64,000 nt of DNA from Pseudovirgaria hyperparasitica. Its lineage: Eukaryota. The stretch lies in the NCBI GenBank assembly GCA_010093815.1, contig ML996569.1. The stretch is one strand, 5' to 3'. A model generated the notes under the pieces. It was not told where the DNA came from and did not search any database. It worked only from the letters and a program-made list of their open reading frames with translations. Below, one piece after another: positions 40,396 to 64,000 of this stretch (positions are counted from its first letter, which is position 1; each line of letters opens with the position of its first letter). The position numbers and the translations under genes are program-made.

Positions 40396-42709
40396 TCACC
40401 GCAATATACTTCTCCTGACAGCGGCATTGCCAAAATACTGCTGTTGAGGAGGTCTCATGCTCGATGGCCGACCATTTTTCACCCCTTGCGAGCTTCTCAT
40501 TTTCGATCCATTAATGATCGTTCGTGGGTCAATACCTCGACGTCCATATGATTGCTGAAAAGTCGCACGAGATGGTACTGGGTTTGATAGGGGAGCAACA
40601 AGTCTAGCTGGTCGCTGTCTCATGAACCCTGATCTGTGGTCCAGTTGTTCTTGTCGAAGTGCAGCAAAATTTGGATTGTGAATCTGTACTTCATTCCGGC
40701 TACCAAGCACGCCTGGTTTCGAGAAGAGGTCCACGCGATGTTCGCGGGGTGATTGCATAAATGAAAGCCGATGTGTATCCTGTACACGCGCCGATGGTGA
40801 TATGAGTTGAGGATCCCGGTATGGCTCTCGAGTGCGAGGTGCGAAATCTCGCCGGGAAGGTTCCATGCTGTAGTGAGCAGCTGCCTGTCGCCGGAAGAAC
40901 GGGCTCGACACACATGTATCACGAACAGTGCGATGATATCTAGGAGAGGGCGACTGCTGTAATGCAGCGTACCTTGACGGTGTCTCGTATACGGAATGCT
41001 GATCTAATCCATTGGAACCATGTTGACTTATGTTCTGTTCAGGCATCTCACAAGCCTGCGCAGAGTACGCGCCGTTCGAACTATCAGTGTGGTTTCGTCC
41101 TACCCAAGCCGGCGGTTTGCTGAATGTGAAACTTGCCCGTGAGACGGCTGAGGTTACGTCGCCCTGGTACGAATCACCCTGGTACCACGAGCGTTCATCG
41201 CCATATTCTATGTTTTTCGGTGCACCACTCTCTACCTGCCAGCTCGGTCTTACGAAAGGTAGTGGATCTTCTGACGGTATTCTCTCAAGTGGACGTTCGC
41301 AGACCCCTCGCCTGCTATTTTGTCTCGTTTTACGCTCATTGCGACGTTGTGTGTCCGCTTGATTCTCGTGCCTAGGAGGAGACATCAAGGCGCCACTCAT
41401 ATAATATCCTTTGGGAACAGGGAGTGGTGTCATATCACTCTTCTGCACCTTTTCGATCTCGTGCGCGCATGGATTGTGTTCCTTATCGCTGCCACGTAGT
41501 TTTGTGGTGGTCTGACTATGGGTGTTTCCAAGCCGTGGCCCTGACTCTTCATCATTGCGTTGATGACATAATGGTGGCTTGGGTGGCGGCATCCTGTCTC
41601 TACTGCTTGAACCAACGCAGTCACGCACAAGAAATGGTTGAAAGCCATGCTGCAAGGGCTGAGACAAGTCATGTTCGAGTTTTGGCCTCTTCGTAGAGGG
41701 TGCGCCTTCGGGCTCTCTTGACATCAACGGCTCATCGTCGTATATGGTGGCCGCTACCTCCATGCGTCGCTTGGAACATTGAGATATTGGGTCATGCTCT
41801 GTCATATCAATGGCAGAGTCTGGAGATGCACCAGATGAGGCGTGTCTTTCTTCGAGTCCGGCTTTTGTGGGAATGTCTCGTGCAGTGTAGGTGTAGTCTG
41901 TATGGGGCACCTCGTAGCCCAATGAAATTAGCTCTTTTTTCAAGTGCCCATTCTCTCTGTGCAGCGTCAGTTGCTGGGCGATTCTTTCAATTTTTCCAGG
42001 TACGTACTTTGCCATCTTCGCCATCACGCCCAGGTAATGCCTGATTTGTGGTTCTTTGGATTTGAAGCGCTTGTACTCCTCGGCTTGTTTTGACAGTAGC
42101 GCAACCCGTTGTTTGCACTTGTTCAGTTCGCTCGTAATCTCTAACCCAGCTTTGTCAAGCTCTGACATTGTCTGCTTAAGTTTAGTATGTGAGGACTTGA
42201 GCTTTCGGTGGCTCTGGAGTAGCCCAGTGCCAAATTGAATGAGGGACAAGTATTGGAATCGAATCGCTTCCAAGCCATGATCAGCCTTTTGAAGGTTCGT
42301 TGGGGGTGTGTCGAACCACATTCTCGGGATTGCCTTGTCGATTTGTCCTTCTTCGTGACCTCTGACTGCGAATAGCTTCTTTGGAGTTCCATCCCGTCGA
42401 TCCGCCACACATCGTGGGCAGGGCGCTGACGGTTGTTCGCCTTCTGGGTAAAAAGCTGCACCTATCCAGCATTTGAGTGTCGAGAAACAGTAGAGTGCTG
42501 CATCACATACCACCATCCTCTAAGTGCTTGCCACAAGTCAAATGTGCACATTCTGTCAACCAAAGGCGTGTTGAGATGCTGTTGGTTGTGGCGTCGTCGC
42601 CTAGGATACCGCAGTTGTTGCCGTATATGTCGAGAATTGTTGCTTGGCATATCGAGCAACTAAAGATGATCTCGTACGCTGTAGGATCTGGGCGTTGTTC
42701 CGCAGCCAT
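40396..42709 (-). CDS. N-terminal RING-type zinc finger plus coiled-coil protein with long disordered tail (Zip3/RNF212-like architecture)
   Basis: FSCSICQ...LWLTECAHLTCGKHL in exon 1 and APCPRC after the intron near 42460-42510. These are followed by a heptad-rich segment (KLKSSHTKLKQTMSEL...) and an S/P/R-rich C-terminus. The family assignment is inferred from architecture. Confidence 0.7.
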
Positions 42710-43181: not shown

Positions 43182-43854
43182 TTATTGGAACGTCCGGCAG
43201 GGGTATCTGAGGTTTCGAGATAAGTCTACGCTTTGCATGCGTTCGTTGGAACTTACTGATTATCATTGCCGTACGTTTGATCTTCCAGCATCTCATAATT
43301 CTTCTTCCCTTGAGGCCCGAGGTTCGCTGGTCGGGGCGGCAGTCCGTCTTCTCCTAGCACTAGCTTTCCAACACCTTTCTCCTTCGCAAGAAATGCTGAG
43401 AGTCCCTTTTCTCCCTCTTCTTTGATTGCTACCAATTGTTTCGCCCCGGCGTCGCCAATCTGCAGTACCTGTTCGTTCGGGCTCTCCTTACTACCAACAG
43501 TCAAAAGGCCTACAACGTCGCCTTGTGACACAACACTCGGGACCTGATATCTCCTGCGCACATCACGCTTCCAGTATGGATTCTCTGCGATATCTCCGGC
43601 AGGTAGTGTGACCGGGTCATCATATGCGGTAGGATCGTTGGCGCCCGGAGGAGGATTGCGGAATTGAGGATTTAGCGGAACACCGGTAGAGCGTTTAGGG
43701 TCGACAGCGAGGAGATTGTTGATCTTTGCCCATATCCCAGTGGGTTGAACGGTATATTTCTGAATCAATAATGTGTCAGTGGTTGTTTTCTTGGAAGCTC
43801 AATGATGGGAGGGTGGCGGCGTACTTTGAACTGGGCAGCGGCCTGTTTGCTCAT
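43182..43854 (-). CDS. NADH:ubiquinone oxidoreductase accessory subunit (fungal 21.3 kDa / NUZM, NDUFA7-like), 3 exons
   Basis: Spliced reading MSKQAAAQFK/KYTVQPTGIW...LAVDPKRSTGVPLNPQFRNPPPG...YDDPVTLPAGDIAENPYWKRDVRRRY...NQ/YPCRTFQ*. Confidence 0.9.
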
Positions 43855-46240
43855 GATGTTGGGTCAATGGGTCGCCAGGATGGAGAGAAATGTATGGAAG
43901 AGCTAGTAGGTGAGATTCGAGTACTGATGATCAAAGGATCTCTAAATCGCGCCTACGCAGTACAGAGACGAAGCTCGTGTTCACATCTAGGTCTGCAGTG
44001 TGGCTCTAAGGCTTGGCGACGGTGGCTCCAAAAGACTATTTCGGAGCAGGCTCTTCGGGACTACGGGATTGGTCACACTCGTCCAAGAACGGTAAGTGGA
44101 CCTTTACCATGTCGGAAGTTCATCATGATATATGCCCAGTGATGCATCGGTATATTCTTGTAGTAAACCTGTTCATGTTGAGATGAAAAGACAATGAGTC
44201 TCCAATTTTCGTGTTTTCTGAAGATGTGAGCCAATCCTCAATGGGATCTATTTCGCTGTAAGAACGACTAAATTAATACTGCAACACTGTGTCGAGCATT
44301 CCAATATCTTGATTGGTCGGCTCATGAGTAACGAAGTACCAACTCTTGCTTGCGATTAGGTGTGGATGCTGATACTAGATGGTCATCGCTGTTTCTATGA
44401 TAGATGTCCACAGTGCAGACATGACACTGATGTTTTGCTTAAGGATCTACTATGCAGAAACCTTTTAGCGGTCTCTGCGTACACACTTACCCTGTTTAGC
44501 GAACACATCTGTAGTATCACAGTGGTACAAAACGCTCATTTCGAGTGCTGACGCGGACCCGATTAACATATTCCTCTATGGTATCTACTTGACAAATAAA
44601 TTACTACGTTGGCCCTCACTTCACTCCTAGGTACAACCTTAGGTTACCAACGCTTATGTTAGTCGTGCAACTCGATCGTCCAGCGAATAAGAAGGCGAAC
44701 TTGATATGCTGTGACTACGAAGATTACGTATGTGCTATTCTTTATCAGTAGCTTCGAAAAAATTTACTAGCGATGATACTGCTTAGAGTAGGGAAAGCTT
44801 CATGTTATCCCCTATTTGTCTTGTTCGATGCCGACAGTAGAGTGGAACACAGGGGGGAAGACTATTAGGAAACTTGAATGGCCAGCTAATTATACTAATA
44901 CGTGTGGGATAGAGATCTTTCTATATTCAATCTGAACATTTCATAACATATGTGTTGTACTTCCGGGCTGACATCCAGACATACCAACAAGTCAATTTGA
45001 ACTGCATCAGGGTTACCTGTTGCTACCTAGGCTTCCAATGAGTGGGCTGTCTGCAGCTCCAGTTCTAAGTTGATCTGTCCGGATGTGACAAGACTTTCGT
45101 CCAATTCGACAACCTTCAACGAGGAGCCATAATGAGGAAGAAGGCAGTCCCCTGCCATCGATATTGTGCACGCCACGACAAGTCTAGACACCTGCAATAT
45201 AACTCTATTATGACTTATGCTCTCCATCGGTAAGCTCACCTCTTGCAATGTCGTTACCCTGTCGTTGAGCTGAGAATTGACCACAGCAATATAGCTCCCG
45301 GTGAGCAGGTCAGCCTATGCTAGAGTGAATTCTATATCGCGGATTTAAGCTAGTTGTGAAAAGACAGCGATGGTCAGATGTGTTTCGGATAGTGTTGAGA
45401 TTTATATGTTCGAGATGGTTCCAAAACGCTTTCTCGCCTAAATGAGTCGATGGCATCAGACATTAGATTATGGCATTTTGAGCATTCGAACTCCAACTTT
45501 CATTGCGCAGCCATGAGTTGATAATTAGTGTTCAGCTAATCCAATATCGCTCTCGGTCTGACATATAGATGCTCCGCCTAGATCAAGCCATGATTTACCT
45601 CTTCAGACTTTATCGAACTCTATTATAGTGCATAGCTTGGAATTAGTCTTTCATTTACTCGCTAGCGTCCTCGGGCGCCATCTTCGGAGTCCGAATTCAT
45701 TCCATAGAGTCCAAGCAGCCCCAAAGTCTCGACGACAATGTTGGAAGGAATGCTAGTCGTAGCGATCTTAACCACCAACCAACAGAAAGAAGCACACTGA
45801 AATCCTATTCGAGCTCAAACGATACTGCATCGAGGATGGTAGGTTATTTTAGCGCCAAAATTGCATCCTTCGTTGCTGAGCACAGAAGAAACTACACTTA
45901 GTTACAGTAAGCGCGAAATTCAGGTCTCTAATGTGGACTTGCTACGACCTCATTTGGCCTCCAGCTCTGTCCGCTAGACGAATATGTGTAGCTTGTCACA
46001 GGCTAAGCACGTCTCAGGCTTCCAACTTCTGACCTTCTCAAGGTAGAACAAGTGACGTGAGGCCGAAATGGCTCACAGGAATCTATTATTAGTCGACCAA
46101 GTGAATTGAGAGGATCTAGTTGCGAGTAACTGGTCGCGTTTGTCGGTATATCCGTTATAAAAGCCGTCAACTTGCACTTCATCTTCACTCGCAGTCACAC
46201 ACAACACTCCATCAATCAATCCTATATCAACCCAAGTATC

Positions 46241-46476
46241 ATGAGATTTCTCGCAGTCATTACTATCGCCCTTTCGGCTCTTGGACACGCTGTGGCTGAG
46301 AAGTGCTGCGCCGACGACAGCGTACGTTAAGGAAATACCTTAGATACCAAATAGAAAGCCACCAACTAACGTGCTCATAGTGCACTGGTGACTGTGTGCC
46401 TGCCACTCCACAAGGCAACCTCTTCTCTTGTCCTCTTGGAGGCGACCCAGCTAAGCTCACCGTTTGTGCCGACTAG
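46241..46476 (+). CDS. Small secreted cysteine-rich protein (58 aa, 6 Cys), effector/antimicrobial-peptide candidate
   Basis: Exon 1 (46241-46321) is MRFLAVITIALSALGHAVAEKCCADDS. A 59-nt phase-0 intron (46322-46380) reads GTACGT...ACTAAC...TAG. Exon 2 (46381-46476) is CTGDCVPATPQGNLFSCPLGGDPAKLTVCAD*. There is a TATAAAA about 85 nt upstream and a CA-rich leader. Confidence 0.85.
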
Positions 46477-47959
46477 TCCAAACAGACGGGAAATACAACA
46501 AAAATCGATTATAGCACATACTTTTGGAACACCAGAAATAAGAATTGTGCCTGACTATGTTGTGTATATTGCCACTGTTGTAATACATAATCAGTCCTCG
46601 ATACTTGAACTTGCATCTTCTTCCTTCGCTGCCGTATATTGCGCATTCATGCTCAATGTGGTCTACTATGGTGTGATACACGGATCATCAGTTCTTGCAC
46701 TACACCTCTGAAAGAGTCATGGAGGCAAATTTAACACAATAGATGGGCATCACAGCAATTTAAAGCTATAACAGCTCATAACCCTATCTGCCATGTCTCA
46801 AGGGTACTATTCAAAGATCACTTAATGAGGGTGGGCACAGAAGATAATGGTTCTTCTTCTCAGGGCTAGCGATGAACTCGCCGTAAAAGCAAACCTGCGA
46901 GCATAGCACGATGCCTCGAATGGAAATTGGCTCATCCTCAACAAAGTGTATATAATGGTTTGAAAATGCCTACTTCAGACCTTTGGCTTCACTCTAAAAT
47001 TAACGATGATGTTGAGAGCCGCTTCCTTTCATCTGCACACCCCATTCTACGAATGATACAGTTTTACCGAAATAGTCTTACCCCTACCCTTGACGAGAGA
47101 TACTAAACTCAGACCTTTCCAAGAACAACTCTTCTCGAACTAGTCTAACTTATCTGTTCTACAAGCAGGTCTACAGCAAGACTTCAAAGAATGAATCGAA
47201 AAATTGGGAAATTCAGGTCATTTTCCGGAAAATGACAGCACAGAGAAAATATGCTTTATTATGACGCCTTTAAAAGACCTCAACTGTACAGACATGGGTG
47301 AACTAATTATGTGGAGGACTAGACAGACTGAGATAATCCTTATGCATGTGAAAGCAAACGTCAACTGACCTCTTAATGAGTCAGTCCTTGGAAACAAAGG
47401 TGTTATCTCATGTTGGCTTGAGAAGGCCATCTTTTGTACGTTGACCAGGCCTAGTGATCAGCCAAATGGAAATCCCTCCTTAATGTGCAGTTGAAGTTCG
47501 ATAATACTTGCGCACATATCTCGGGTAATGGTTCTTTGGCTCAAGGATGAGATGTATCACATGAGTTGGGGATCTTGGTTAGGGTGGATGTACGACTGAC
47601 ATACTAAGTTTGAATTAATGGATGAGTTGATTAGATTAGTTTCAGATAGCATTGGAAACATAAATGAGACGACATGAACACAACAACCTAATATTGGTCA
47701 CAAGGTTTCTCACGTCGGGATATGACGGTGAGAAAGAATTCGCAATTAAGCCAGAGGTCTTCTCAACAATGAACACACAATAAACAAAGTAGAGGGGAAA
47801 CTTTAACATTTTTTCGGTGCTCAAACGTTGTTTTGAAGAGATGGTGGCTATATATAAGACTCAACACTCATGAACGGTTCATAGAAGCACCTTATGATCA
47901 AACATATCGCCTAATATCCAATACTAGCTCAGTCCTATATATAATTAATCAAGAACAAG

Positions 47960-48469
47960 ACACGTCAATCCATCATTATACTCTCCCACCACTCACTTAT
48001 ACTGTCAGCAATGGCAACTGCTATTCCAACGAGTCTACACATTTAGACCATATCGATACCTCGTCAATCGATCCATCTATGACTCAAACTTCGGTAGATT
48101 CTGTTGAAAGGAAGCTACTCTCACAGCAGGAAGTCAGTAGAGTCCTCTCAAAAGCAGGGGTTTCTCCACACAGGTGTCGAGAACTAGTCAAAATTTTCAA
48201 TTAAAGCAACATGGGCGGAAACGATATACATAGATGCCAACACAGGATACCTTCCTCTGTGTACTGTCGAGTTATCTGATGGTGTTTTTTGGTCGTTACT
48301 TGTCAAATGTGAGGATGTTTATGCACACGGACAGCTGGACAGGTGTTTGAATGACAATAAGCCTCAAAATCTGGCCTCCATAGCGAAAGGGACAGAAGGG
48401 AAGCGGTTGTCATGGCCTAGTTACAGTAAACATAAGTTTCATCTCAAAATAGAGAGAGGAGAGATATGA
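47960..48469 (+). pseudogene. Probable decayed secreted-protein gene
   Basis: Signal-like RQSIIILSHHSLILSAMATAIP lacking a proper upstream ATG and followed by stops. A downstream frame GVEN*SKFSIKATWAETIYIDANTGYLPLCTVELSDGVFWSLLVKCEDVYAHGQLDRCLND...GEI* follows. TATATAAG lies near 47849. Confidence 0.4.
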
Positions 48470-50137: not shown

Positions 50138-51484
50138 TCAGATCTTCTTCGCGATCGATGTACCGCCATAAACGACCCGAGCCACCACAAACAAACACGC
50201 GCCGACACCTGTGGCCACACCAGAGAAAATCTGCGCATTCGTAAAGTCGCCTCCACTAGCAGTGAGTATGGCGCCGCCAATCGGGCTCCCCGTCAGGGCG
50301 GAGATCGCGCCAAAAGCCATCAGCGAGCCCGTCCAAACGCCGATATCCTTGATCGGTGAGACCTGTGCGACAAGTACGGGAGTGAGTGAGATGCCGGCGC
50401 CAGAGGAGAAGCCAAAGAAGGCTGCGAACAGGATGAGAGGTGCATTTCCGGTCGCCGGGAGCCATAGTGCGAGGATTAAGATGGTAGTGGCGAACGACAT
50501 AATGATCATGACGTTGAAGCGGCCGACTTTGTCCGCGATTGCGTTTGGGAGCGTACGGCCGAGGATGGAGGCACCGTTAAGGATCGCGACAAGGTACTGT
50601 GCAAGCTGGGCGTCCATACCGAAACTACGTGCCTCACTGACGATGAAGACAAAGGGCGTGAACATACCCCAATAGAAGAAGAATACGGCAGCTGTGAGCA
50701 CACAGAAACCAGGTTGTTTGAAGGGGGCGATGTAGTTGGAGAGGGCGAAGGGGCGCTTATTTGGTGGGAGGCGCGATCGGACAGTCAAGTTGGAGAAGAC
50801 CAGGAGGCCGAGGATGGTGAACCCGATGGTGCGCATTGTCCACGCATAACCTATCTGCGGGATGAGCTTCGTGACCATAATGGGCAGGATGACGCCGCCG
50901 AGAGACGAGCCGGCGGTGACGAGACCGAGGGCGGCGCCACGCTTTTTGAAGAACCATGTAGTGGTGGAGTTCATCGAGCAGTAGAATATCATGGACGCAC
51001 CGATGGCGGAGCAGATTGCTTGGGCAAGGATGAAGTGGTAGTATTTCGTGGCCAGACTGGTCATCATGAGGCCGAAGACGTGCATGAAGCTACCAAGGAG
51101 AAGAAGATAGCGAGGACCGTAGTTGTCGAAGAATTTACCGACAATGAGGCCGCCAGCCATCATGAAGAAGATCTGAAGGGAGGATATCCATGCAATGTCC
51201 GCAGGGGTGTAAGCAGCCAGTTGGTGGGTCTGGTAGTATTCTTGGAAGACACCGACGCAGTTAATCCATCCAAAAGACACGAAGAGACCGGCCGAAGCGC
51301 CGGCAACGTTCAACCATGCCTGTAGTCCGCCGTCTGGAAACGATCGTGGGTCCGTAGGACTTATTACTTCGAGTGTTTTCTCAACATCTTGCAGCGGCTC
51401 TGTAGGTGGGAGAGGCGTCGAGGATGTGCCGACTGCAGTATGCTGAGATAATTTCTCATCGTCACTAGAGTGAAGTGAGGACAT
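50138..51484 (-). CDS. MFS transporter, monocarboxylate porter (MCH/Mch5-like) family
   Basis: FPDGGLQAWLNV, GVFQEYY, FDNYGPR, WFFKKRGAALG..GSSLGG and ADKVGRFN motifs, with about 12 hydrophobic segments. The likely start is MSSLHSS at 51484. Confidence 0.93.
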   Translation of the reverse strand: MSSLHSSDDEKLSQHTAVGTSSTPLPPTEPLQDVEKTLEVISPTDPRSFPDGGLQAWLNVAGASAGLFVSFGWINCVGVFQEYYQTHQLAAYTPADIAWISSLQIFFMMAGGLIVGKFFDNYGPRYLLLLGSFMHVFGLMMTSLATKYYHFILAQAICSAIGASMIFYCSMNSTTTWFFKKRGAALGLVTAGSSLGGVILPIMVTKLIPQIGYAWTMRTIGFTILGLLVFSNLTVRSRLPPNKRPFALSNYIAPFKQPGFCVLTAAVFFFYWGMFTPFVFIVSEARSFGMDAQLAQYLVAILNGASILGRTLPNAIADKVGRFNVMIIMSFATTILILALWLPATGNAPLILFAAFFGFSSGAGISLTPVLVAQVSPIKDIGVWTGSLMAFGAISALTGSPIGGAILTASGGDFTNAQIFSGVATGVGACLFVVARVVYGGTSIAKKI

Positions 51485-52348
51485 TCTGGAAAATGTGTTT
51501 TTGGAGACCTGAGAAGACTGGATTGCCTTATGGTGGCTAGTGTTTATCGGTGTAGGGGTGGGTTGAGGTTTAGATTTGGATTTTTGCGCTGATAGCTTGG
51601 TAGTGGTTTGAACAATGAAGTACAAGAGTGTGTCCAATGATGAGATCTGTGGTGGTATTGAAGAACAAGTAACAAAAAGCAGACGGAGTGTTGATATAAA
51701 TGTCCTAGATTTGAGCTTTCGGGCCATGGTAAAAGACCGAATACAGCGAGAAATGCACGAATTTGCTTAGATGATCAAGTTTGGGGGCCATGTGTCGGGC
51801 TCATCGGAACGTCGATAAACGCGAGGGGCCGAGCCCGCATTCGTGGCTTTTGGCCAATAAGCAGACCCGAAATCGCAGAGGAAGACGGTAATGCACGAGT
51901 CCGTTGATGGTTGTTATCCGTCGAAGTTTTTCCAGAGCCATGTTCGGACTTAACGCTAGTGTCGCGAACAGACGAATCTTCTGCATTTTACTTCTTCTGT
52001 GATACGCCAATGACTCATGCGATAAGTTGGACGCTTCATGTTTTCCCTGTTGTGGTATAGCAGTTTGGCAGTCGTAGCGAAGCCATGCTGCAGTTCCTGG
52101 GTGACTTGCACATGGCCGAGTGTCGCGGAGGAAAGTTTGTAAGGCTGCAAAGCTTGTTGATACACGGCTAGGATTCTTTTTTGATGCTTGATGCAGACTC
52201 CTATCAACAGATATGGAGGGGATTGATGCTTTGTGGCTTCGGTGTCGTGCTCGCGTTCAAACGTTGTCTCGCCTCGTGTGCTGGACAGAGACCGAAGACG
52301 TAGTCGGTCTTTTCGCGGTATTCGAATTGTCGCCGATGAACTATTGCC

Positions 52349-54119
52349 TCAGGCAGCATTCTGACGGCTAAACACCTTCTTTCCGCGTACCCATGTCTCT
52401 CGGACTTTAAGCTGCCTCAACTCATCGACCAGCAGCCCATCGAAAGATCTATCCAACACTATCCAGTCAGCAAAGGATCCTTTCTGTATGACTCCCGCTT
52501 TGCCTTCCATGAATGCACCTCGTGCCGGGCTCAACGTAAAGCCTCGCAGCGCGTCTTCTATTGTCAATGCCTCGCTCATATGCCAGCCATCATTGCTGCC
52601 GCCGGCGCCAAGACCTGTTCGTGGACTTCGTCTAGCAACCGCTGCAAATATGCCTTCGAATGGATTTGCTGGCTCAACAGGAAAGTCGCTGCCTAGGATG
52701 GGATTTGTCTTCAACAGTGACTTCATACGGTATGCCTCTGCGCTTGTTCTTTGAGGACCCAGCCGGTCTTCTGCATACGCCATGTCACTTGTTGCATGTG
52801 TGGGCTGGATGCTGGGAATGATGCCTATGTCCAACATGCGGATTTGATCATTGGGATGGATGATCTGTGAATGCTCAATCCGGAACCGTCGTTTCGACTG
52901 GCAAGATGCCAGAGACTCGCTTGGGCACACCTCAAATAACGCAGCTGTCATGGCATTGATTGAAAGTCGATTCGCCAGATCACCTATAGCATGAATGTTG
53001 ACCTGAAAACCATGTAACGCCCAGCTCTTTGCCACCGAAGTCAACGTCGTTGCGTTGACTAGAAGCGACCCAGATGTGTTCGGCTTGTCGCTGTAAGGTT
53101 CGATCATGGCGCTGCCCCAGCTACCTAATGCACCATCTGTGAATGAATATCAGTATCAGATTTCTTTTGATGAACGATCAAGACTTACCCGCAAATAGCT
53201 TGACGCTCTGCGCAACTAGCATCCCATCGGCCTTTTTTACTGTCCTCGCGTCGTCTGCGCAGAACGTGTTCCTGGCCGCACACTCCAACATTGCGTATAC
53301 CCTCACCGTCCACTCCTCCCCTCCGGCCAACTCCTCATACATCTTCAACTGCCCCGGCATGACCCCTGCATCGTGCACACCCACAATTCCTAACTCATTC
53401 AGACTTCTCATTGCACTGCCCACCCACTTTTTCTTCGTCTGCCCACTCGGCTTCGGCCACATCGCCCTCACGATATCCATCGCATTATCGCAGAACACAC
53501 CGAGCCCGGGCTCCCGCACAATTTCGCCGCCTTCAACATACTCAGGCATTGGCTTTGGCAAAAGATCGAGCACGGCCTGCGAGACCCATATACAGTGCAC
53601 ATCGATTCGGTCAAGCATGATGTACTTGCCGGACAGCACTGGGTCAGCTTCGAGGTCTACAGCAGTGGGCATCACGCCTCCAAATGCAGCCTGATCCCAG
53701 CCAATTCCGCGCAACCAATCCTCCCTCGATCCCGTGCCTGCATTCATCTCCAAATACGCTCTCACTCGCAGCCTGACATCCTGCAAACCCTCCGCCTGGA
53801 ACAGATCCACGGAGTGTAGCATCTCACCGTACTGCATCACATGCCCATGCCCATCCCACAAGCCCGGCAGGACATAACCATCGATCAGTGTCTCAGGCGC
53901 AGGCGAGGGATCTGTATACACAGTCCTGAACTCGCCATTTCTTCCAAGCGTGAAGCAATTCGCATACGGCGCGTCATCAGATAATGTCTTTATCGACGTG
54001 TAACAGTGAATGTGGGACGCGAGGTAGTGCGTGCGGATGTATTCGACGACAAAAGCGAGTGCGATGAGGGTGACAGAGGAGAGGGCGAGAACACGTATTC
54101 CTGCCATCGCCTGTTTCAT
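52349..54119 (-). CDS. Amidohydrolase 3 family (YtcJ-like) metallo-hydrolase with N-terminal hydrophobic anchor, two exons
   Basis: LPGLWDGHGH, GIGWDQ, RIDVHCIWV, VKLFA/DGALGSWG across the intron near 53139-53188, HAIGD, RIEH, QPTH and LGSDFPVE. The start could alternatively be 54167. Confidence 0.92.
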
Positions 54120-56023
54120 TGTTGGTGTGGAAGACGGTGCTGGAGATATTATACACGGGATATTCATTCGGCGTATTGGGATGTGGGGTTAGTGGGAACA
54201 GGATAAAGAGGCGCTATAACGGATTCGAGCTAGCGCAAATGTAAGGAACTGGAAATAAACAATGTTCGCCTTGTCATCATCCCGGCCTTCCATTTATTCC
54301 CATCAGTATAGCTAAGCTTTATCATAGCCTCTAGCTTACTATTGCCTCATTTTCTTTGTATCGTGGTCACGAGTAATGTAAGCGCATATCAGCTACCACG
54401 AAGCTCATCCCTAACAAACCAATTTATATAATGCAAAGCAAACACCGAGAAGTAAAACATACAATAACAGCTAACGAGAACACGCAGGCGTCGATCAGCA
54501 TCACAAGCAGCATTCTCAGCCCAGAAACATGGGCTTTGTGAACATTAACGAACAAATATCACAGGTAATCATACCAGTATGAATTGCATCTATGGGAAGA
54601 TACTTGATAGATACCCGCGCGTCCGTTCCATATCGTAGAACAACCATTTGGCTATACATTATGCGCTCATTGTGCCTTTATTACCCTATATACAAAGATC
54701 AGGAGGCTTTGAAAGAAGAACTCGACAATACTATATGTAGTAGTCTATATGCGAAATGCAAGATATTGTACTAGGATATAGGTTACAAGTGGTATCAAGA
54801 GGTAATGTATTAGTGATGGGTAGGTATGGCATAGATGCAATAGGCACAACAGTAGCTTCAAGGGAGAAATAACGCTGTAAAAGAGGTCAGGCCTGACGCA
54901 GTACGTATTTTAAACCCAAATGACCCCTCAAGAGCTACGACAAAGTTCTACGCCCAACGCGTTGATTGTCGGTATCAAAGGAACTCAACCAGACTTATAC
55001 TCTCAGCCTTTTACATTCTCTGCTAGAAGAGAAATCCAATATGCAACCATTTGCACCAGTTAGCATAAGTATATGCCAAAATAAAACTCTGCCTAGCTCG
55101 ACGTTGACATGTCCTGTTATAGTAGTAGGCAGACACGCCAATCGCCAACTAGATCGTTCGCGTGACGAGGGAATGAGGCTAAGAAGCGGGAATTCCCAAG
55201 TTTTGGAACGGGCGCTATGCTGTGGTTTGTTACGTGCGTTATGTTCGCTTTGATGATGGTTCTAAAGTAGGTCGTGTGATTTGTTCTTCGGTAACTATAA
55301 CTATAGCCGTCTAGATGTCCCTGAAAGACTTGAGATGTTACAGTGGATCAAATGGCTCTCTTTGATTACAAAATACGTCAGTTTAGACAACTGGCACTAT
55401 GTCTTGTGGTGATCGTCTTCATAGTTCGAGCCCCTCGTTAGTAGCTCTAAGCACGATGATCCGTTCAACGGGCGTGTAAGAACTGATTATCCGTATATCC
55501 GACCCCTTTCCACTGGCGATCAACACCACGAATCCACTTCTCTAGGTGATTTCACCGGTCAAAAATAGTATGCCCCTCACTTTCCACTCCACAGTCCTAT
55601 CCTATAGATTCCCATCGCTGGTCGGTATCCGGCTGCAGAACGCGTCGTCAATTGAGAGTGTGTGATTGGCTCATGGTTATATGAACGGCATACTGAAGCT
55701 CCACTTCGGTAGACACGTCATAACATAGCGCTCGACGGTGAAGATTGAACCATGCAAATACAAACAACCAAAGAGTCCGTGGCTTCATTCATGAAACAGT
55801 TTCCTAATGTATATGGCTTGCCTAAGCCTGCTCGGTGCTCTATCCGACGAATATTGTTTGGACGTTGTGATAATTGGATGATCAAGATACTTCAGGATTG
55901 TGGAAGACTTTGGTTGTTGCGAAGTGTTATGTACATGATTTCCTAGTAGGCCAGGGACTGGGTCCCACAAGAATGGAGATGCTTCCAATCATTTGGTCAA
56001 ATTGGAGCCAGGAAGGCCGAAAA

Positions 56024-56392
56024 CTATCCCGCCTGCATGACCGTGGACACCTGTGGGTTGCGACGTATGAAGTTTCGCACCCAGAGCTTTCCAAGAGGAG
56101 GCTCTTCTCGTGGTAGCATACGTGACGCCATGTCGCGCACCCGGTTGTGAGTAGGTGGGTGTCCAAAGTTGGCCATGGTGATGATGCAATATGTCAGGAG
56201 TCTCTCTTCTGGAGGAGAGAGTCGCTGACGTTCCGCATGAGCTGACGACTTCTTCACAGCGCCGTATAGTCGATCGCGTAGTGTTGACCGGGGTATTCGA
56301 TGTGCAGTTGCGGCTTCTCTCTCGGATTGGTATTCGCCATTTCTCAAAGCTCTTATAGCTTTTGCTATAGCTTGCTCTCGTTCGGTGATCAT
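56024..56392 (-). mobile_element. pogo/Fot1 (Tc1-mariner superfamily) transposase N-terminal DNA-binding region only (HTH_psq plus CENP-B HTH)
   Basis: AIRALRNG..SEREAATAHRIPRSTLRDRL.G...QRLSPPEE..L...GHPPTHNRVRDMA...LGKLWVRNFIRRNP matches the Fot1/Pot2-type N-terminus. No DDD catalytic domain is recognisable downstream. Confidence 0.85.
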
Positions 56393-57851
56393 TGTGACAA
56401 TTGTATATAGTGGGTTGTAGTTTGTGTGCTGTTTATGCTGGGGGTGTTCAGTTTGAGCCCTGTTAATCCGAGAACAGGTACTGAGATAGAGTGTATATAT
56501 ATATGTATATGTAACCTACCATCCAGTAATATCCTCAAGGCACTAGTAGCACTTGCGGGAGATGGAAACTTTAGAGCTTGTAACATAGGTCAAAGCGTAT
56601 TGTCGGGCAGAAGTGCGATTCTTTTCCCTCTCGTGATGACCTGGGAATTGTTTGATCCGTGCGACTATCTCCCATCTTGGTTACTCGAATAATGCAGCCA
56701 AGATCGATGAAGAAGTACGCCAACCCCAGTGCACCATGATCGCCACGCCATCGTGGAGAATTTCCCTTTTACTAGGATTAGCGTTAATGTAGATCTCTAA
56801 GCTTCTGTTATAAGCGCATAGAGTCCTTTGGGGATTAGTGGGTCTACTGGCCAATAGAATTCGGCTTATTAGTGACACTCTTTGGTCTGGGATAGTACTA
56901 CTCCTGGATTGGGAATACATGGGGTAACAGTAGTTTAGAAGCTTGTTCAGCCCCTGCCATACCCCTCTGAACCGTCCATTTCCCCACATTCCTTGGTGTG
57001 AAAGTGGAGCCACTTATACATACTAGTAAGTAGCCTCTCAGCAGCTTCAGTAATCTTGATTTGCATTGTGAGTATCCGGGTATCAAAAGACCCATCTTCT
57101 ACCCGGTATTATGGATGACAATCAAACAAACCGCGATGCTCTGTGAAGATCGAAATCGATCGAGAACCTCGAGGTGTCGAGACTCGCGCACAGTTGTGGA
57201 CGCTTTTGCTTCCCCCAAGGACCCGAGAGTCTACTGTTATGGTGGTCTCCTTTGGACCCACTGATGCGGCTTTGGATCGATCCCGTCGTACTTACCGTCC
57301 CCCAGTCGTCACTCGACCTTATTCCCGAGCTTACTCACAGAATGTAGTGCCTTCTACAATTCCCACGATCCAGCTACATACTAATTATTCTCCTATTTGC
57401 TTGGCTTTGGTCACTGTTATGAGCCTTCTTTGTCTATCTGTTCTTGCTTTTCAGACCCAAACTCATCTCAAGCCTATTAAAAATGTTTCCTAGCAACATA
57501 TTTGCTAATATGCCTGATCTCAATGATAAACAGGGCCAATTTGCATCCTCTTGGCCTATCTAGAGTTTCATCCAAGTTGTAGTGATGGCGATAGTCAGGG
57601 CGGAGTTCCTCAGGTACTTTCATGTTTGCCTTGCGCTGTCTGAGCGTAGCGAAAGGCCCAGTTGTGGACGCTAAGTCGAGTATTTCAATTCTGTCATGAG
57701 CTTTATTGAATCCAAGTCAACCCAAAGCTTAGACTATACGTATCATACCCCGGACAGATCTCTCGATCGGATTGAGAGATCGGACAAAAAGTAGACATTC
57801 CTCAAGCCTGTACAAGGGTCCTTCAAAGACACCAAATGCTTCACATGAAGT

Positions 57852-58899: not shown

Positions 58900-61800
58900 C
58901 TCTTATTCTACCTTTTCTCTAATAACTCTAGAATTAAGACTCTAGGAGGTTTTTTAATTATATCTAAATATACTTCTATATAAAAAACTTCTTTTACATC
59001 CCTAAGAGGCTAACTTAGTCCATTCGGGGTAATATAGCAAGATATATACCTTAATCGATAGAGTATACCGAGTACACTAACTACTACTATACGTACGTAC
59101 GTATAGCGTTAAAACCAAGACGTTATCACCGTATAAAGATATATATATACCCTCTTAAAATCCTTACGGAGATAGAGGCACGGACTACACTACTAGAACG
59201 CCGATATACCGACTCCCTTTTATTAGTTAAGGGTAGCCCTTAACTAATAAATATAGCGGCCTTAGGTACCGACATACCCTAGTATATACTAGATATACCC
59301 CTACCGGTACGATAGAAAAGGCTATATAGCGATATTACTAAGGGTAACTATATACCTATCTAAAACGTAGAATATACCTAAAGGCGCACGCCGCTATAGA
59401 TAGACGGAATAAAGGGGACCCTAAGAGGGGAAACCCTCCTAGATTATATTAACTACTAGGTAGTATATATAGAGAAGGAAGCCGGAGAGAGCTAGAAGAC
59501 CCTCCTATATATATTCTAGGACCTTATCTAGAATCTAAAGGGAATTACGGAGGAGGAGAAGAAGATATAACTAGGAGGACCGGAGAGTAGGCTCGACTAA
59601 ATAGAGGCTAGTCTACGTAGAATCTAGGAGGAACTTACTTAAGGTAAGCGCCCTAGTATATAGGTATAAATAGTAGTAATACCGGAGGCTATACCACGGG
59701 CCCCCCGGACCGGTAATACGGTGTATAGTATACACGTTATAATCTAGAATAAGGACACCCTAGCATAGGTCTAGTAAGCATCCCTAAAGGATATAGTAAG
59801 TAAGATTAATAAATAAAAGGGAATATAGTTAAACGTTATCGCCGCTAAACTTACGCTAGAAGGAGTAGTACTTACCACGATAACGAATATTACGTAGTAG
59901 ACTATCTCGCGCGATCCGAACGCGATTAGTAGTATCTTCCTAGGCGCCTCTATTAGGGCGGCTATATATCTAATATAGGTATACTCTATATCTATAAGCG
60001 GATAGATTATTAGAGAAGAGGATATTATATAGATAGAATAGTTAAACGAGCGAAAATACCTAGGGATTAAGATCGTAAGAGCATAGTAGAAGAATATATA
60101 AGGGATTAAAACCAGATCGAAGATATACTCTACTATAATAGTAGAGCTTAAGGACCCCGCCCTCGCGTATTAAATTACGTAAGAGGGATTCCTAGTAGAA
60201 GGGGAGCTTCTTATAGCGGAACCATGGGATAGAGTATAGGCAATAATATAGTGCTTTAACTATTAGGGATACGGGTACACGGCATAGCGGTACTTCTAAA
60301 AGACTAGATATAGGTGGTATTAATAAGAATATAGTACCTAGGAGTACCCCTATAGAATATAAGGAGAGGGCTAGAGGGATAGGGATATAGTAAAGTACTC
60401 TAACTACGACGGTAAGTACCCGTCGTAGTCGGCTATATACACGAAACGTAAATAGGTTACTAAATATATCCACTTAATCCGGATAAAGGGAGTAAGGTAG
60501 CTATAAATAATACGACCTACTACTATTTCTCTCTTTACTATAATACTACTACTATAGACTACCTCCTTACGAGGAAGCGGTTAGAAATAATAAACTATCC
60601 CGAGAAAGCTAATAATAGGACGGCCCCGAGGAATTACTAAGGCCGCCGCTATATAAGGATAGTCGCGTCTTAGAGGAATAAATATATAGGCCTATATATT
60701 CCCTAGCATCTAATAAGAGACTAAGATATACTTCTAATTATATAGATAAACGTATAGTATAAACGTAAGAACTAGGCGATACTTCTTAAGAAGACCGGAG
60801 CTGTAATACTCGCTATATAGGAGCTATATAAATACTACTAGACGAATAAACCAATAACACACCTAGGATATTATATAATACACCCCCTAGGACCGGAGAG
60901 GAGAGTCCTCTTCCATATCTATAAGTCTATTCTACTCTTATTATAGTCGTATACTAAACGGGATAACCTCTAGATAATACTACACCTCTAGACGAATATT
61001 AGACCCCTCTATATATATAATATATATAATTAGAACTAATCGCTTTAGGCGGATAACATGCTTAAGGGTACTACTAAGCTAGGATAATATATCCTTCTAG
61101 AAGACTTTAACCTCTATTATAGCTAGTAGGGTAGACTAACTATTACCCGCGAAGAGCTTCGAGCTAGAGAACTACGTACCTAATGCTACGGCTTTCTATA
61201 TCTTCTTATACTAGTAGAATAGATTATCTAGTGAAAATATAAATAAGATAAGGGCGGATCTATACTCGACCTTACCCTAGCCACTAGATATATTTATAAT
61301 AGAACTTAATACTACCGCCTAAGCCTTATATAGATAGACTCCGACTATAAATATATAGAGACCGTAATAGACGTATCTACCCCTTAAGACTAACGAGGGC
61401 GATAGCTATAGAAGGATACTAACTAGGAAAAGTATCTAAAGGACCTAGAATCGATAATCCTAGACCCGTCTATAGTCGACGTATCTAATGGCCCGGCTAT
61501 TAACTAGGCCGTGAATACACTCCTATAGACGTACTAGGGAGTAAGAGATAAACACGTGCCGTACTAAATATATAGACCCCTAGACCTAAAAAGTATACCT
61601 TAAGTGCGAGAGTATAGGCGAGAAGTCCAGAGATTATATACACGCGTATACTATAACCGTATATCTAAAGTATAGGATAAATAGAGAGAGGCGAGAAGAT
61701 AACGAGATAAGGTCCTCTATAATAAGCGATATAAATAGTAGTATATAGTCACGGACAGATACACACGTAATACTACTAGACTATGGTATATAGTAAAATA

Positions 61801-64000
61801 GGCTAAAAGTACCGCCTCCCCGACACCTATACCACTTATACCCCCCCTTATATATTAAGAAAAGATATACTCCACGAGCCTTAAGAAAATAGAAATCCTA
61901 TAAGAGATTATATTCCCTCTCCTAGAACCCGTAGACCTATTAGATATTAACGGCACGGAATACCCGGAAGCTATAAGTATCCCTAGGGAAATCACGGACG
62001 ACGATATACTTAGCGCTATTAAGATACTTCTAAACGATAAAGCGCCTAGGCTAGATAGAATTCCGAATCGATGCCTTAAGAGGACCATATAGGCGACCTT
62101 ACTAATTATAGGCTATATATTCCAAGCGTACGCCCGTATAGGATACCACCTATAGAGCTTCCGAACTATATATATAGTTATACTCCTAAAACTAGGGAAG
62201 AGTCTAAATATACTAAAGGGATAGAGGCCGATCACCCTCCTCTCCTACCTTAGTAAGGTACTAGAAGCTATAATTACTAAGAAGATAAGTATAGTAGTAT
62301 AGGTATACGGCCTTCTTCTAGTAAACTAGAAGACGAAGATAGAAAGCTCTCTAATTATAGCTATTTAATATATCCTTAAGGTTATCTAGACTATATAGAA
62401 ATAAGAACGAGTCGTTACGCTACTCTCTCTAGATATAATAGGGGCATTTAATAAGGTAAACTATATAAGACTTATCTATAACCTCCGGATAAGGCGAATA
62501 CCTAAGTAGATTATATAATTTATATAGTCCTTCCTCGCGTAAAGGACTACTTAAATATATATCCCCGGATACCGAAGCGAATATAAGAAGACGGTATATA
62601 GTATCCCGTAAGGGAGCACTATCTCCCTAATCCTCTTTCTCTTCTTTATAGTAGACCTCCTTTAGGGAATAGAATATATAGAGATAGTCGGATACGTAGA
62701 TAATATATACCTCCTTATAGTCGATAGTAGTACTAGTAGAATATATACACGACTCGAACGAGACCATAAGAAATACGTCTAGTAGGTAAAGCGCCACGGA
62801 GTAAAATTCGTACCTAAAAAATACTAGCTTATATACTTTATTAACCGCTATAGAGGATAGGCTACTAGGGAGGGGGTATGTCGCCCCTAAATCGACGCCT
62901 TTATAGAACTACTAGTATAGAGTATACGAGCACTCGGCGTTATAATTAATAATAAGCTAAAATAGAGACTATAGGTGGCACACGCCGTCTCTAGAGCCCT
63001 CTAGGTAGAAACCGCTATATACTAGATTACGGTATCTACGTAGGGAATAGCCTAGGATAAGGCGAGATAGCTATACGTCTCCCTAGCACGCCTAGCCTTT
63101 ATATATAGATATAAGTACTAGTATACGGCCCTTATATAAGCTCGGCGAGTAAAGCTTAAGTCTATATAAAACCATATACTCCGCCTTATCTCCGGCATAT
63201 ATAAAGCTACTAACACGACGCTCCTCCAACGCGAGATAAACGTAATAAATATATAGAACTTCTACTAGATATAGAGACTTATATACTTTACTAAATAATA
63301 AGTATAAGAACGTAGAGGAGATAGGGTATATACCTTCGCCGTACTACGTACACGTATCCGCGCGTATTACTAGGCTCTCTCTACTATAGAATAAACTCGA
63401 GTATAATATAAATACTATATAGAGGCGGACTCGAGCTAGACCGTATAGGAGGTTTAAAATAACCCGGATACCGTCCTAAGCTAATAGAGCCCTAAGGAGC
63501 TTAGCCGCGTTATATAGTTATAGATCTAGAATAAATAGAGGGAGGTACTTAAAGTCTAGTAGGCCTCCTAATAGGATAGGTATCTAGAATAGATCTAAGG
63601 GCCTTAGAAGGAACCGAGTAAATAGATATATAAAGGGCTAACGAAGGCCTAAGCATCTATACTCCTCTAAGCCCGAATAGGCGCTATAGGTCTTCTATAT
63701 TACCTCTACTAGAGAGGTATCCTAGATATATCTTTCTAGTACGAGGACTACGGCCGGAGAGGTATAATACGCCACTACCTCGCGACGTGCTCTAGCCTCT
63801 ATACTCTAAGATAAGCCCTCGTCCGTATAACGAGGACCTCTAACATTACGTAATAGCTTAATAAGTACCCTAAGGACGTCGCCCGATAGATACTTATATA
63901 CCTTCCTCTCCCCTAGTTCTAGTAGACCCACGTATATATACTAGAAGAAGCCCGATATATACTAGAAGAACCCTAGTATACGTCGGAAGAACCCCGGGAG
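58900..64000 (+). mobile_element. RIP-inactivated LINE retrotransposon (Tad1-like): gag-like ORF1 with zinc knuckles, ORF2 with APE endonuclease and reverse transcriptase; runs off the window end
   Basis: Extreme TpA excess and CpA/TpG depletion. Mutated motifs include CFNY*GYGY...Y (CCHC, ~60250), AI*EL (AIQEP, ~60815), LLEDFNLYY (GDFNLHH, ~61100), DSDY, KAPRLDRIP (~62040), *RPITLLSYLSKVLE (~62225), LSLDIIGAFNKV (~62425), IP*GS (~62605), GYVDN (YxDD, ~62695) and LGVIINNKL (~62935). The left boundary is approximate. Confidence 0.95.

Follow-up and report, generated by a model that had tools for sequence, protein, structure and literature searches.

A short two-exon gene on the plus strand of the window (46241..46476; by window we mean the whole 64-kb stretch of DNA analysed, G000:C5:310001-374000 in a genome of 35.4 Mb) very probably is real, and its spliced product of 58 amino acids with six Cys residues probably represents an orphan among the small secreted cysteine-rich proteins of fungi, a class known to be large. 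Regarding its function, the chances seem about even that it is a lineage-restricted, disulfide-stabilised secreted ligand of the effector type, whose binding partner would be one specific extracellular protein from a host or a competitor.

Anatomy of the locus and the question of chance

Exon 1 (46241..46321, plus strand, 81 nt) can be read from the sequence as 27 codons starting with the ATG at 46241; it encodes a predicted signal peptide of 19 amino acids (46241-46297), followed by the first eight residues of the mature part including a CC pair. The phase-0 GT-AG intron (46322..46380, plus strand, 59 nt), whose splicing we infer from its consensus signals, has the donor GTACGT, the branch site ACTAAC at 46365-46370 and the acceptor TAG, which holds the first AG after this branch site; splice signals and intron length agree with the consensus of filamentous ascomycetes. 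Exon 2 (46381..46476, plus strand, 96 nt) adds 31 codons, with four Cys residues (x3, x11, x11), and a TAG stop. The two mini-exons, the intron joining them and its branch site thus lie exactly where the initial annotation had placed them, and splicing the exons reproduces the 58-residue product with the pattern CC-x4-C-x3-C-x11-C-x11-C (Cys at 22, 23, 28, 32, 44 and 56; spacing 0-4-3-11-11). An alternative donor, GTGGCT, giving an intron of 89 nt and a four-Cys product of 48 amino acids, was rejected as non-consensus. Without splicing the frame of exon 1 stops after 29 amino acids, which explains the absence of the gene from the list of open reading frames.

Upstream, a TATA-box-like and putatively functional element, TATAAAA (46156..46162, plus strand), is located 85 nt 5' of the start codon, followed by a C/A-rich leader (46164..46240, plus strand; 77 nt with 29 C, 24 A, 19 T and 5 G), which likely forms the 5' UTR and start region. 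Downstream of the TATA box the first ATG is the start codon itself, the nearest 5' ATG (46068) lying ahead of this box. The two-exon layout is well-formed and present as a single copy, and judging from these signals the gene is likely transcribed and spliced.

How often such an arrangement arises by chance was estimated with a scanner requiring an ATG, a hydrophobic start, an intron with GT, branch site and AG, and at least six Cys. With filters that were chosen when the gene was already in view, so that the chance rates flatter it, a strict donor yielded no six-Cys look-alike in 100 first-order Markov windows, a relaxed donor 19 look-alikes in 53.2 Mb of third-order simulated DNA (~0.02 per 64-kb window) and, in a second simulation of the same order covering 62.4 Mb, 17 two-exon look-alikes with six Cys, only one of the 17 having a TATA box; nothing passed in these 62.4 Mb once a short length, a signal free of Cys, an A-x-A site and a TATA box were all required. 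The relaxed-donor scan of reversed real DNA likewise returned no look-alikes. On the real contig (464 kb under the two-exon filter) two six-Cys candidates were found, and the 58-residue gene alone bears a TATA box. The second candidate (G000:C5 ~225545) arises from misreading the beginning of a longer membrane-type protein rich in Cys and is unrelated (alignment P=0.88); in that protein (L184:5545-6200), which has no Pfam match, a signal-bearing Cys-rich extracellular domain is followed by a Ser/Thr stretch, then by a transmembrane-like segment.

Codon usage gives a mixed picture. Under a synonymous-codon model trained on 1819 codons from nine genes of the window, the locus cannot be told apart from intergenic DNA; its LLR of -2.3 bits lies between -5.8 +/- 4.0 for the intergenic null (P=0.19) and +5.7 +/- 3.9 for simulated coding sequence. 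Among codons for amino acids with at least four codons, 27 of 36 end in C or T (P=0.0005 against intergenic DNA; a post-hoc count). Alternatively, the locus might hold no functional gene at all, the arrangement having arisen in intergenic DNA by chance or surviving there as a silent relic. The neutral codon test, the homologue searches, which came back blank everywhere (see below), and the rate of simulated look-alikes (~0.3 per Mb, while a genome-wide scan covers many windows) would accord with this reading, which we nevertheless consider unlikely: it has to face the empty result of the complete filter set, the contrast between an A+T-rich intron (61% A+T, 39% G+C) and G+C-rich exons (56-57% G+C), and a locus free of stops, frameshifts and RIP damage, with normal RIP indices (TpA/ApT 0.85).

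The peptide and its comparison with known families

Heuristic anatomy supports the signal-peptide-like start with an A-x-A site that had been proposed: a basic residue at position 2 and a hydrophobic core precede A-x-A at 17-19, the 10-residue maximum of hydropathy is 2.57, and the -3/-1 rule holds at 19, likewise at 13, 15 and 17. The predicted mature part (39 residues, 3.9 kDa) is acidic (pI 4.05, charge -4.2; GRAVY about -0.07) and consists of, among others, six Cys, four Pro, four Gly, five Asp and one Glu; it contains no dibasic site (KR/RR), N-glycosylation site, His or C-x-C motif. With 58 amino acids in total (below the limit of 200 for small secreted proteins), no transmembrane segment past the signal and an even number of Cys in the mature part (6 of 39 residues, the class asking for at least four), the product shares these features with the small secreted cysteine-rich proteins. 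Cys residues of secreted proteins normally are oxidised, and six of them in the secretory pathway most likely form three disulfides.

Sequence relatives were looked for with single exons of 27-31 amino acids as protein queries, a length whose reach is limited to fairly close relatives. Within the 35.4-Mb genome, the DNA and both exon proteins match this locus alone. Four Cys/splice patterns gave 7, 4, 17 and 25 matches in the genome, numbers close to the 8, 1, 24 and 19 in reversed controls; no paralogue was among the matches translated, one dinucleotide repeat having been left untranslated, and the 325 matches of a fifth pattern, which lacks the intron, were dominated by simple repeats. Exon 2 (31 amino acids) matched six of 1.84 billion representatives at E<=0.001, all of them long proteins (210-3016 amino acids) and five of the six aligned over 3-9 stretches; the two inspected are repeat proteins lacking the Cys spacing. 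The ESM Atlas had no usable match and Pfam no match at E 10 for either exon; in the PDB, exon 1 matched nothing and exon 2 gave one chance match (E 0.75). In metagenome contigs, a degenerate exon-2 pattern was found at least 121 times at no fewer than 118 loci; among the 121 matches listed 57 are open, the best being identical at 6 of 22 free positions, and neither the 25 best-scoring nor the five short-ending open matches listed look like a secreted peptide.

In a word-indexed protein collection, the frame containing exon 1 has three words in common with no protein of 22-72 amino acids, and two neighbouring proteins are present there at 100% identity. The gene thus apparently was missed by annotation, as had been supposed; a length filter of the collection could give the same picture. 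That no relatives appear agrees with the position of the organism. The lipoate ligase of the window has 27 non-self matches at E<=1e-120 with an identity of 53-66% (the 19 species-named ones all being, as we take it, Dothideomycetes) and the neighbouring MFS transporter reaches a non-self identity of at most 67%; among the annotated organisms of the protein collection none is thus closely related to this one, and with a lipoate ligase just 53-66% identical to its nearest relatives in a Dothideomycete genome, an orphan gene is to be expected.

Several known families can be set aside by their Cys patterns. Hydrophobins of class I and II have eight Cys with two CC doublets; our peptide, having six Cys and one doublet and matching Pfam with neither exon, is not one of them, a point on which the initial annotation was right. 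CS-alpha-beta defensins (plectasin, VdAMP3 type) pair C-x3-C with C-x-C, and the missing C-x-C rules them out. Inhibitor cystine knots (Avr9 type) have at least two residues between Cys I and II, an adjacent pair, if any, being III-IV; the CC at I-II is incompatible with this spacing, as a comparison with the Venturia knottin g8946 (6-5-0-4-4) illustrates. Metallothioneins are cytosolic proteins with C-x-C motifs, and are ruled out by the signal-like start and by the missing C-x-C. A Kex2-processed repeat or RiPP precursor was rejected, there being no KR/RR in the mature part and no sequence repeat at the locus. PAF/AFP-type and Ecp10-like proteins are net cationic, and the peptide carries -4.2 compared to +4.7 for PAF (PMC6062912). 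As for the gamma-core, both levomeric strings are present and the dextromeric one is absent, some form occurring in 64% of Cys-fixed shuffles.

Among the closest parallels are the three-disulfide mini-effectors of Venturia inaequalis (knottin-, defensin-, PAF-like Ecp10 and crambin-like Ecp39), a fungus of a related class, which similarly are six-Cys proteins with precursors of 48-75 amino acids (PMC9632046). Their spacings, counted by eye from the representatives shown there, are 6-5-0-4-4 (g8946), 6-3-3-9-0 (g10808), 6-3-4-16-0 (g22936), 8-14-5-6-5 (g17513) and 4-1-10-4-12 (g11924); unlike in our peptide, the CC pair comes first in none of these five, and the difference to g11924 also excludes an Ecp39-like protein. 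Six short motifs (four from the peptide and two variants) had no match in the candidate list of the Venturia supplement. The exact spacing of the first four Cys does occur in alpha-4/3 conotoxins (CCX4CX3C; PMC3600190), the sole printed match for the Cys spacing of the peptide among the main texts of the literature; in the fungal peptide, however, two extra Cys and 26 more residues come after these four, there is no pro-region and the gene is fungal. We treat this match as a coincidence, which at most hints at a pairing C1-C3, C2-C4 and C5-C6. The main texts of the literature and one Venturia supplement do not contain the complete spacing 0-4-3-11-11 (other supplements could list a relative), nor did three peptide motifs occur in the main texts.

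With Dothideomycete small secreted cysteine-rich proteins the peptide shares a length below 200 amino acids, a signal-peptide-like start, even Cys, the lack of a Pfam domain and lineage restriction, its spacing being unlike that of all representatives examined. Such proteins number 67-251 per Dothideomycete genome, 21.3% being singletons and 8.3% having a Pfam domain (Ohm et al. 2012, PMC3516569), and among the 70 apoplastic small proteins induced in planta (ipiSSPs) of Cladosporium fulvum, 62 have at least four Cys in even number and 14 are reported to lack a homologue (bioRxiv 10.1101/127746). Orphans being routine in this class, missing relatives are not surprising. In Pfam, the representatives, the PDB and the main texts of the literature no described family was found, in line with the initial annotation, which had not recognised the spacing. 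The further suggestion of an undescribed family is overstated: the searches returned no second member, orphans are the norm among the small secreted proteins of Dothideomycetes, and a new family cannot be founded on one sequence, however unusual its Cys spacing.

Possible functions of the peptide

If the peptide is an effector-type ligand, the following course of events can be proposed. The single-copy gene would be transcribed and likely spliced into the 58-residue precursor, from which the predicted signal peptide of 19 residues would be removed on secretion, and three disulfides would likely fold the acidic 39-mer into a compact, protease-resistant form; splicing, secretion and oxidation of all six Cys are likely by analogy with what is known of fungal small secreted cysteine-rich proteins. 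Outside the cell, the peptide would not punch membranes but attach to one specific protein belonging to a host or competitor, and if the fungus parasitises rusts, the likeliest target may be a cell-surface protein or a secreted enzyme of the rust, which could be contacted via the two 11-residue loops containing Pro and Gly. The acidic charge, the lack of Kex2 sites and the lack of repeats make such a folded binder more plausible than either a RiPP precursor or a cationic peptide active on membranes.

In favour of the effector-type ligand, the gene signals are complete, mutually consistent and rare in simulated DNA, the locus is free of RIP damage, and the even Cys number, the length below 200 amino acids and the signal-like start resemble the C. 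fulvum proteins described in bioRxiv 10.1101/127746. Effector-like, disulfide-bridged secreted proteins are present in specialist mycoparasites, where effectors are known mainly as predictions, according to PMC13188720. Against it, the data contain no homologue or paralogue showing conservation of the Cys residues, the synonymous-codon test (P=0.19) does not support coding status and, unlike many effector genes, this one does not lie beside repeats (~12.5 kb off). Caution is also advised by Sca of Penicillium digitatum, which is secreted, anionic (pI 4.5) and Cys-containing, as our peptide is predicted to be; compared by description, it differs in its 117 amino acids, four Cys, pro-peptide and wide conservation, and its knock-out is described as having no phenotype and the protein as not antimicrobial (PMC7711571). 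Such proteins therefore need not be host-directed weapons.

A real secreted peptide could be directed at the fungus itself, as a component of the spore or hyphal surface, a developmental signal or a modulator of its own extracellular proteins. The strong TATA box and the C/T-ending codons would fit an abundant product, the gene is located between housekeeping-type genes and far from repeats, and Sca would be an anionic precedent (PMC7711571). We assign this self-directed role a low but appreciable probability, bearing in mind that the peptide is not a hydrophobin, that its GRAVY is about -0.07 and that homologues or paralogues, none of which were found here, are usual for structural proteins of the surface.

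The initial annotation had placed the product among effectors and antimicrobial peptides; membership in the small secreted cysteine-rich class is probable, and the antimicrobial half does not fit the acidic mature peptide, since a charge of about -4 is not what one expects of cationic antimicrobials. That the peptide belongs to a new, anionic type and acts directly on microbes or fungi appears rather improbable to us. In its favour, size and three putative disulfides are like those of fungal antimicrobial peptides, the peptide contains both levomeric gamma-core strings (as defined in PMC6062912), and a fungal defensin can be anionic, as PMC7711571 mentions for AfusinC. Activity of the PAF type, on the other hand, is driven by positive charge (PMC6062912), the lack of C-x-C excludes a CS-alpha-beta defensin, and a gamma-core string so frequent in shuffled sequences carries little information. 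An extracellular scavenger of metals (Cu, Zn, Ca) is very improbable; the Cys thiolates and the six acidic residues of the 39-mer could provide ligands, yet C-x-C and His are missing and the Cys residues would normally be oxidised.

Returning to the effector-type ligand, its most far-reaching version would make the peptide the first representative of a so far undescribed mini-fold with three disulfides (CC-4-C-3-C-11-C-11-C), an anionic effector by which a rust-parasitising fungus disables a rust protein. This we regard as unlikely; if true, it would be a molecularly defined peptide weapon of a mycoparasite and a synthesisable lead against rust diseases. Importance would increase if the peptide were host-induced and active on rust fungi, and its 39 residues can be synthesised, folded and solved directly. 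More modestly, one probably unannotated gene is added to the effector candidates of a poorly sampled fungus, and another case to those in which gene callers drop spliced genes of less than 60 amino acids, which has annotation value and will not surprise specialists.

Genomic surroundings

Among the frames tested, the gene sits in ~6 kb without a Pfam-supported gene, flanked by a probable complex I B14.5a subunit (43253-43798, minus strand) and an MFS transporter (50138-51766, minus strand). The former is a frame without its own ATG, which resembles the main exon of a B14.5a (NDUFA7)-type subunit (weak Pfam match, E 0.019). The best named matches of the latter are in lichen-forming fungi and Glonium (63-67% identity); this monocarboxylate-type transporter adjoins an amidohydrolase gene (50138-54188 together, minus strand), possibly forming a small catabolic pair of patchy distribution. 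At 40396-42709 (minus strand), the product of a two-exon gene begins with a RING-like Cys/His motif (weak zf-RING_5, E 0.022) and has a long tail of low complexity; we take it to resemble meiotic ligases of the Zip3/RNF212 type. A Tc5/pogo-type DNA transposase remnant (HTH_psq, HTH_Tnp_Tc5) is found at 55989-56515 (minus strand). The RIP-damaged repeat begins ~12.5 kb from the gene and the indices are extreme only from ~59 kb, the A+T-rich repeat DNA of 59000-64000 being heavily RIP-mutated (TpA/ApT 1.6-1.9). Possibly another small unannotated gene is located at 47850-48204 (plus strand), where TATA-like elements near 47850 and 47937 and a pyrimidine-rich leader precede a short frame of ~41 codons, which runs from an ATG near 48079, ends at 48204 and has no Pfam match.
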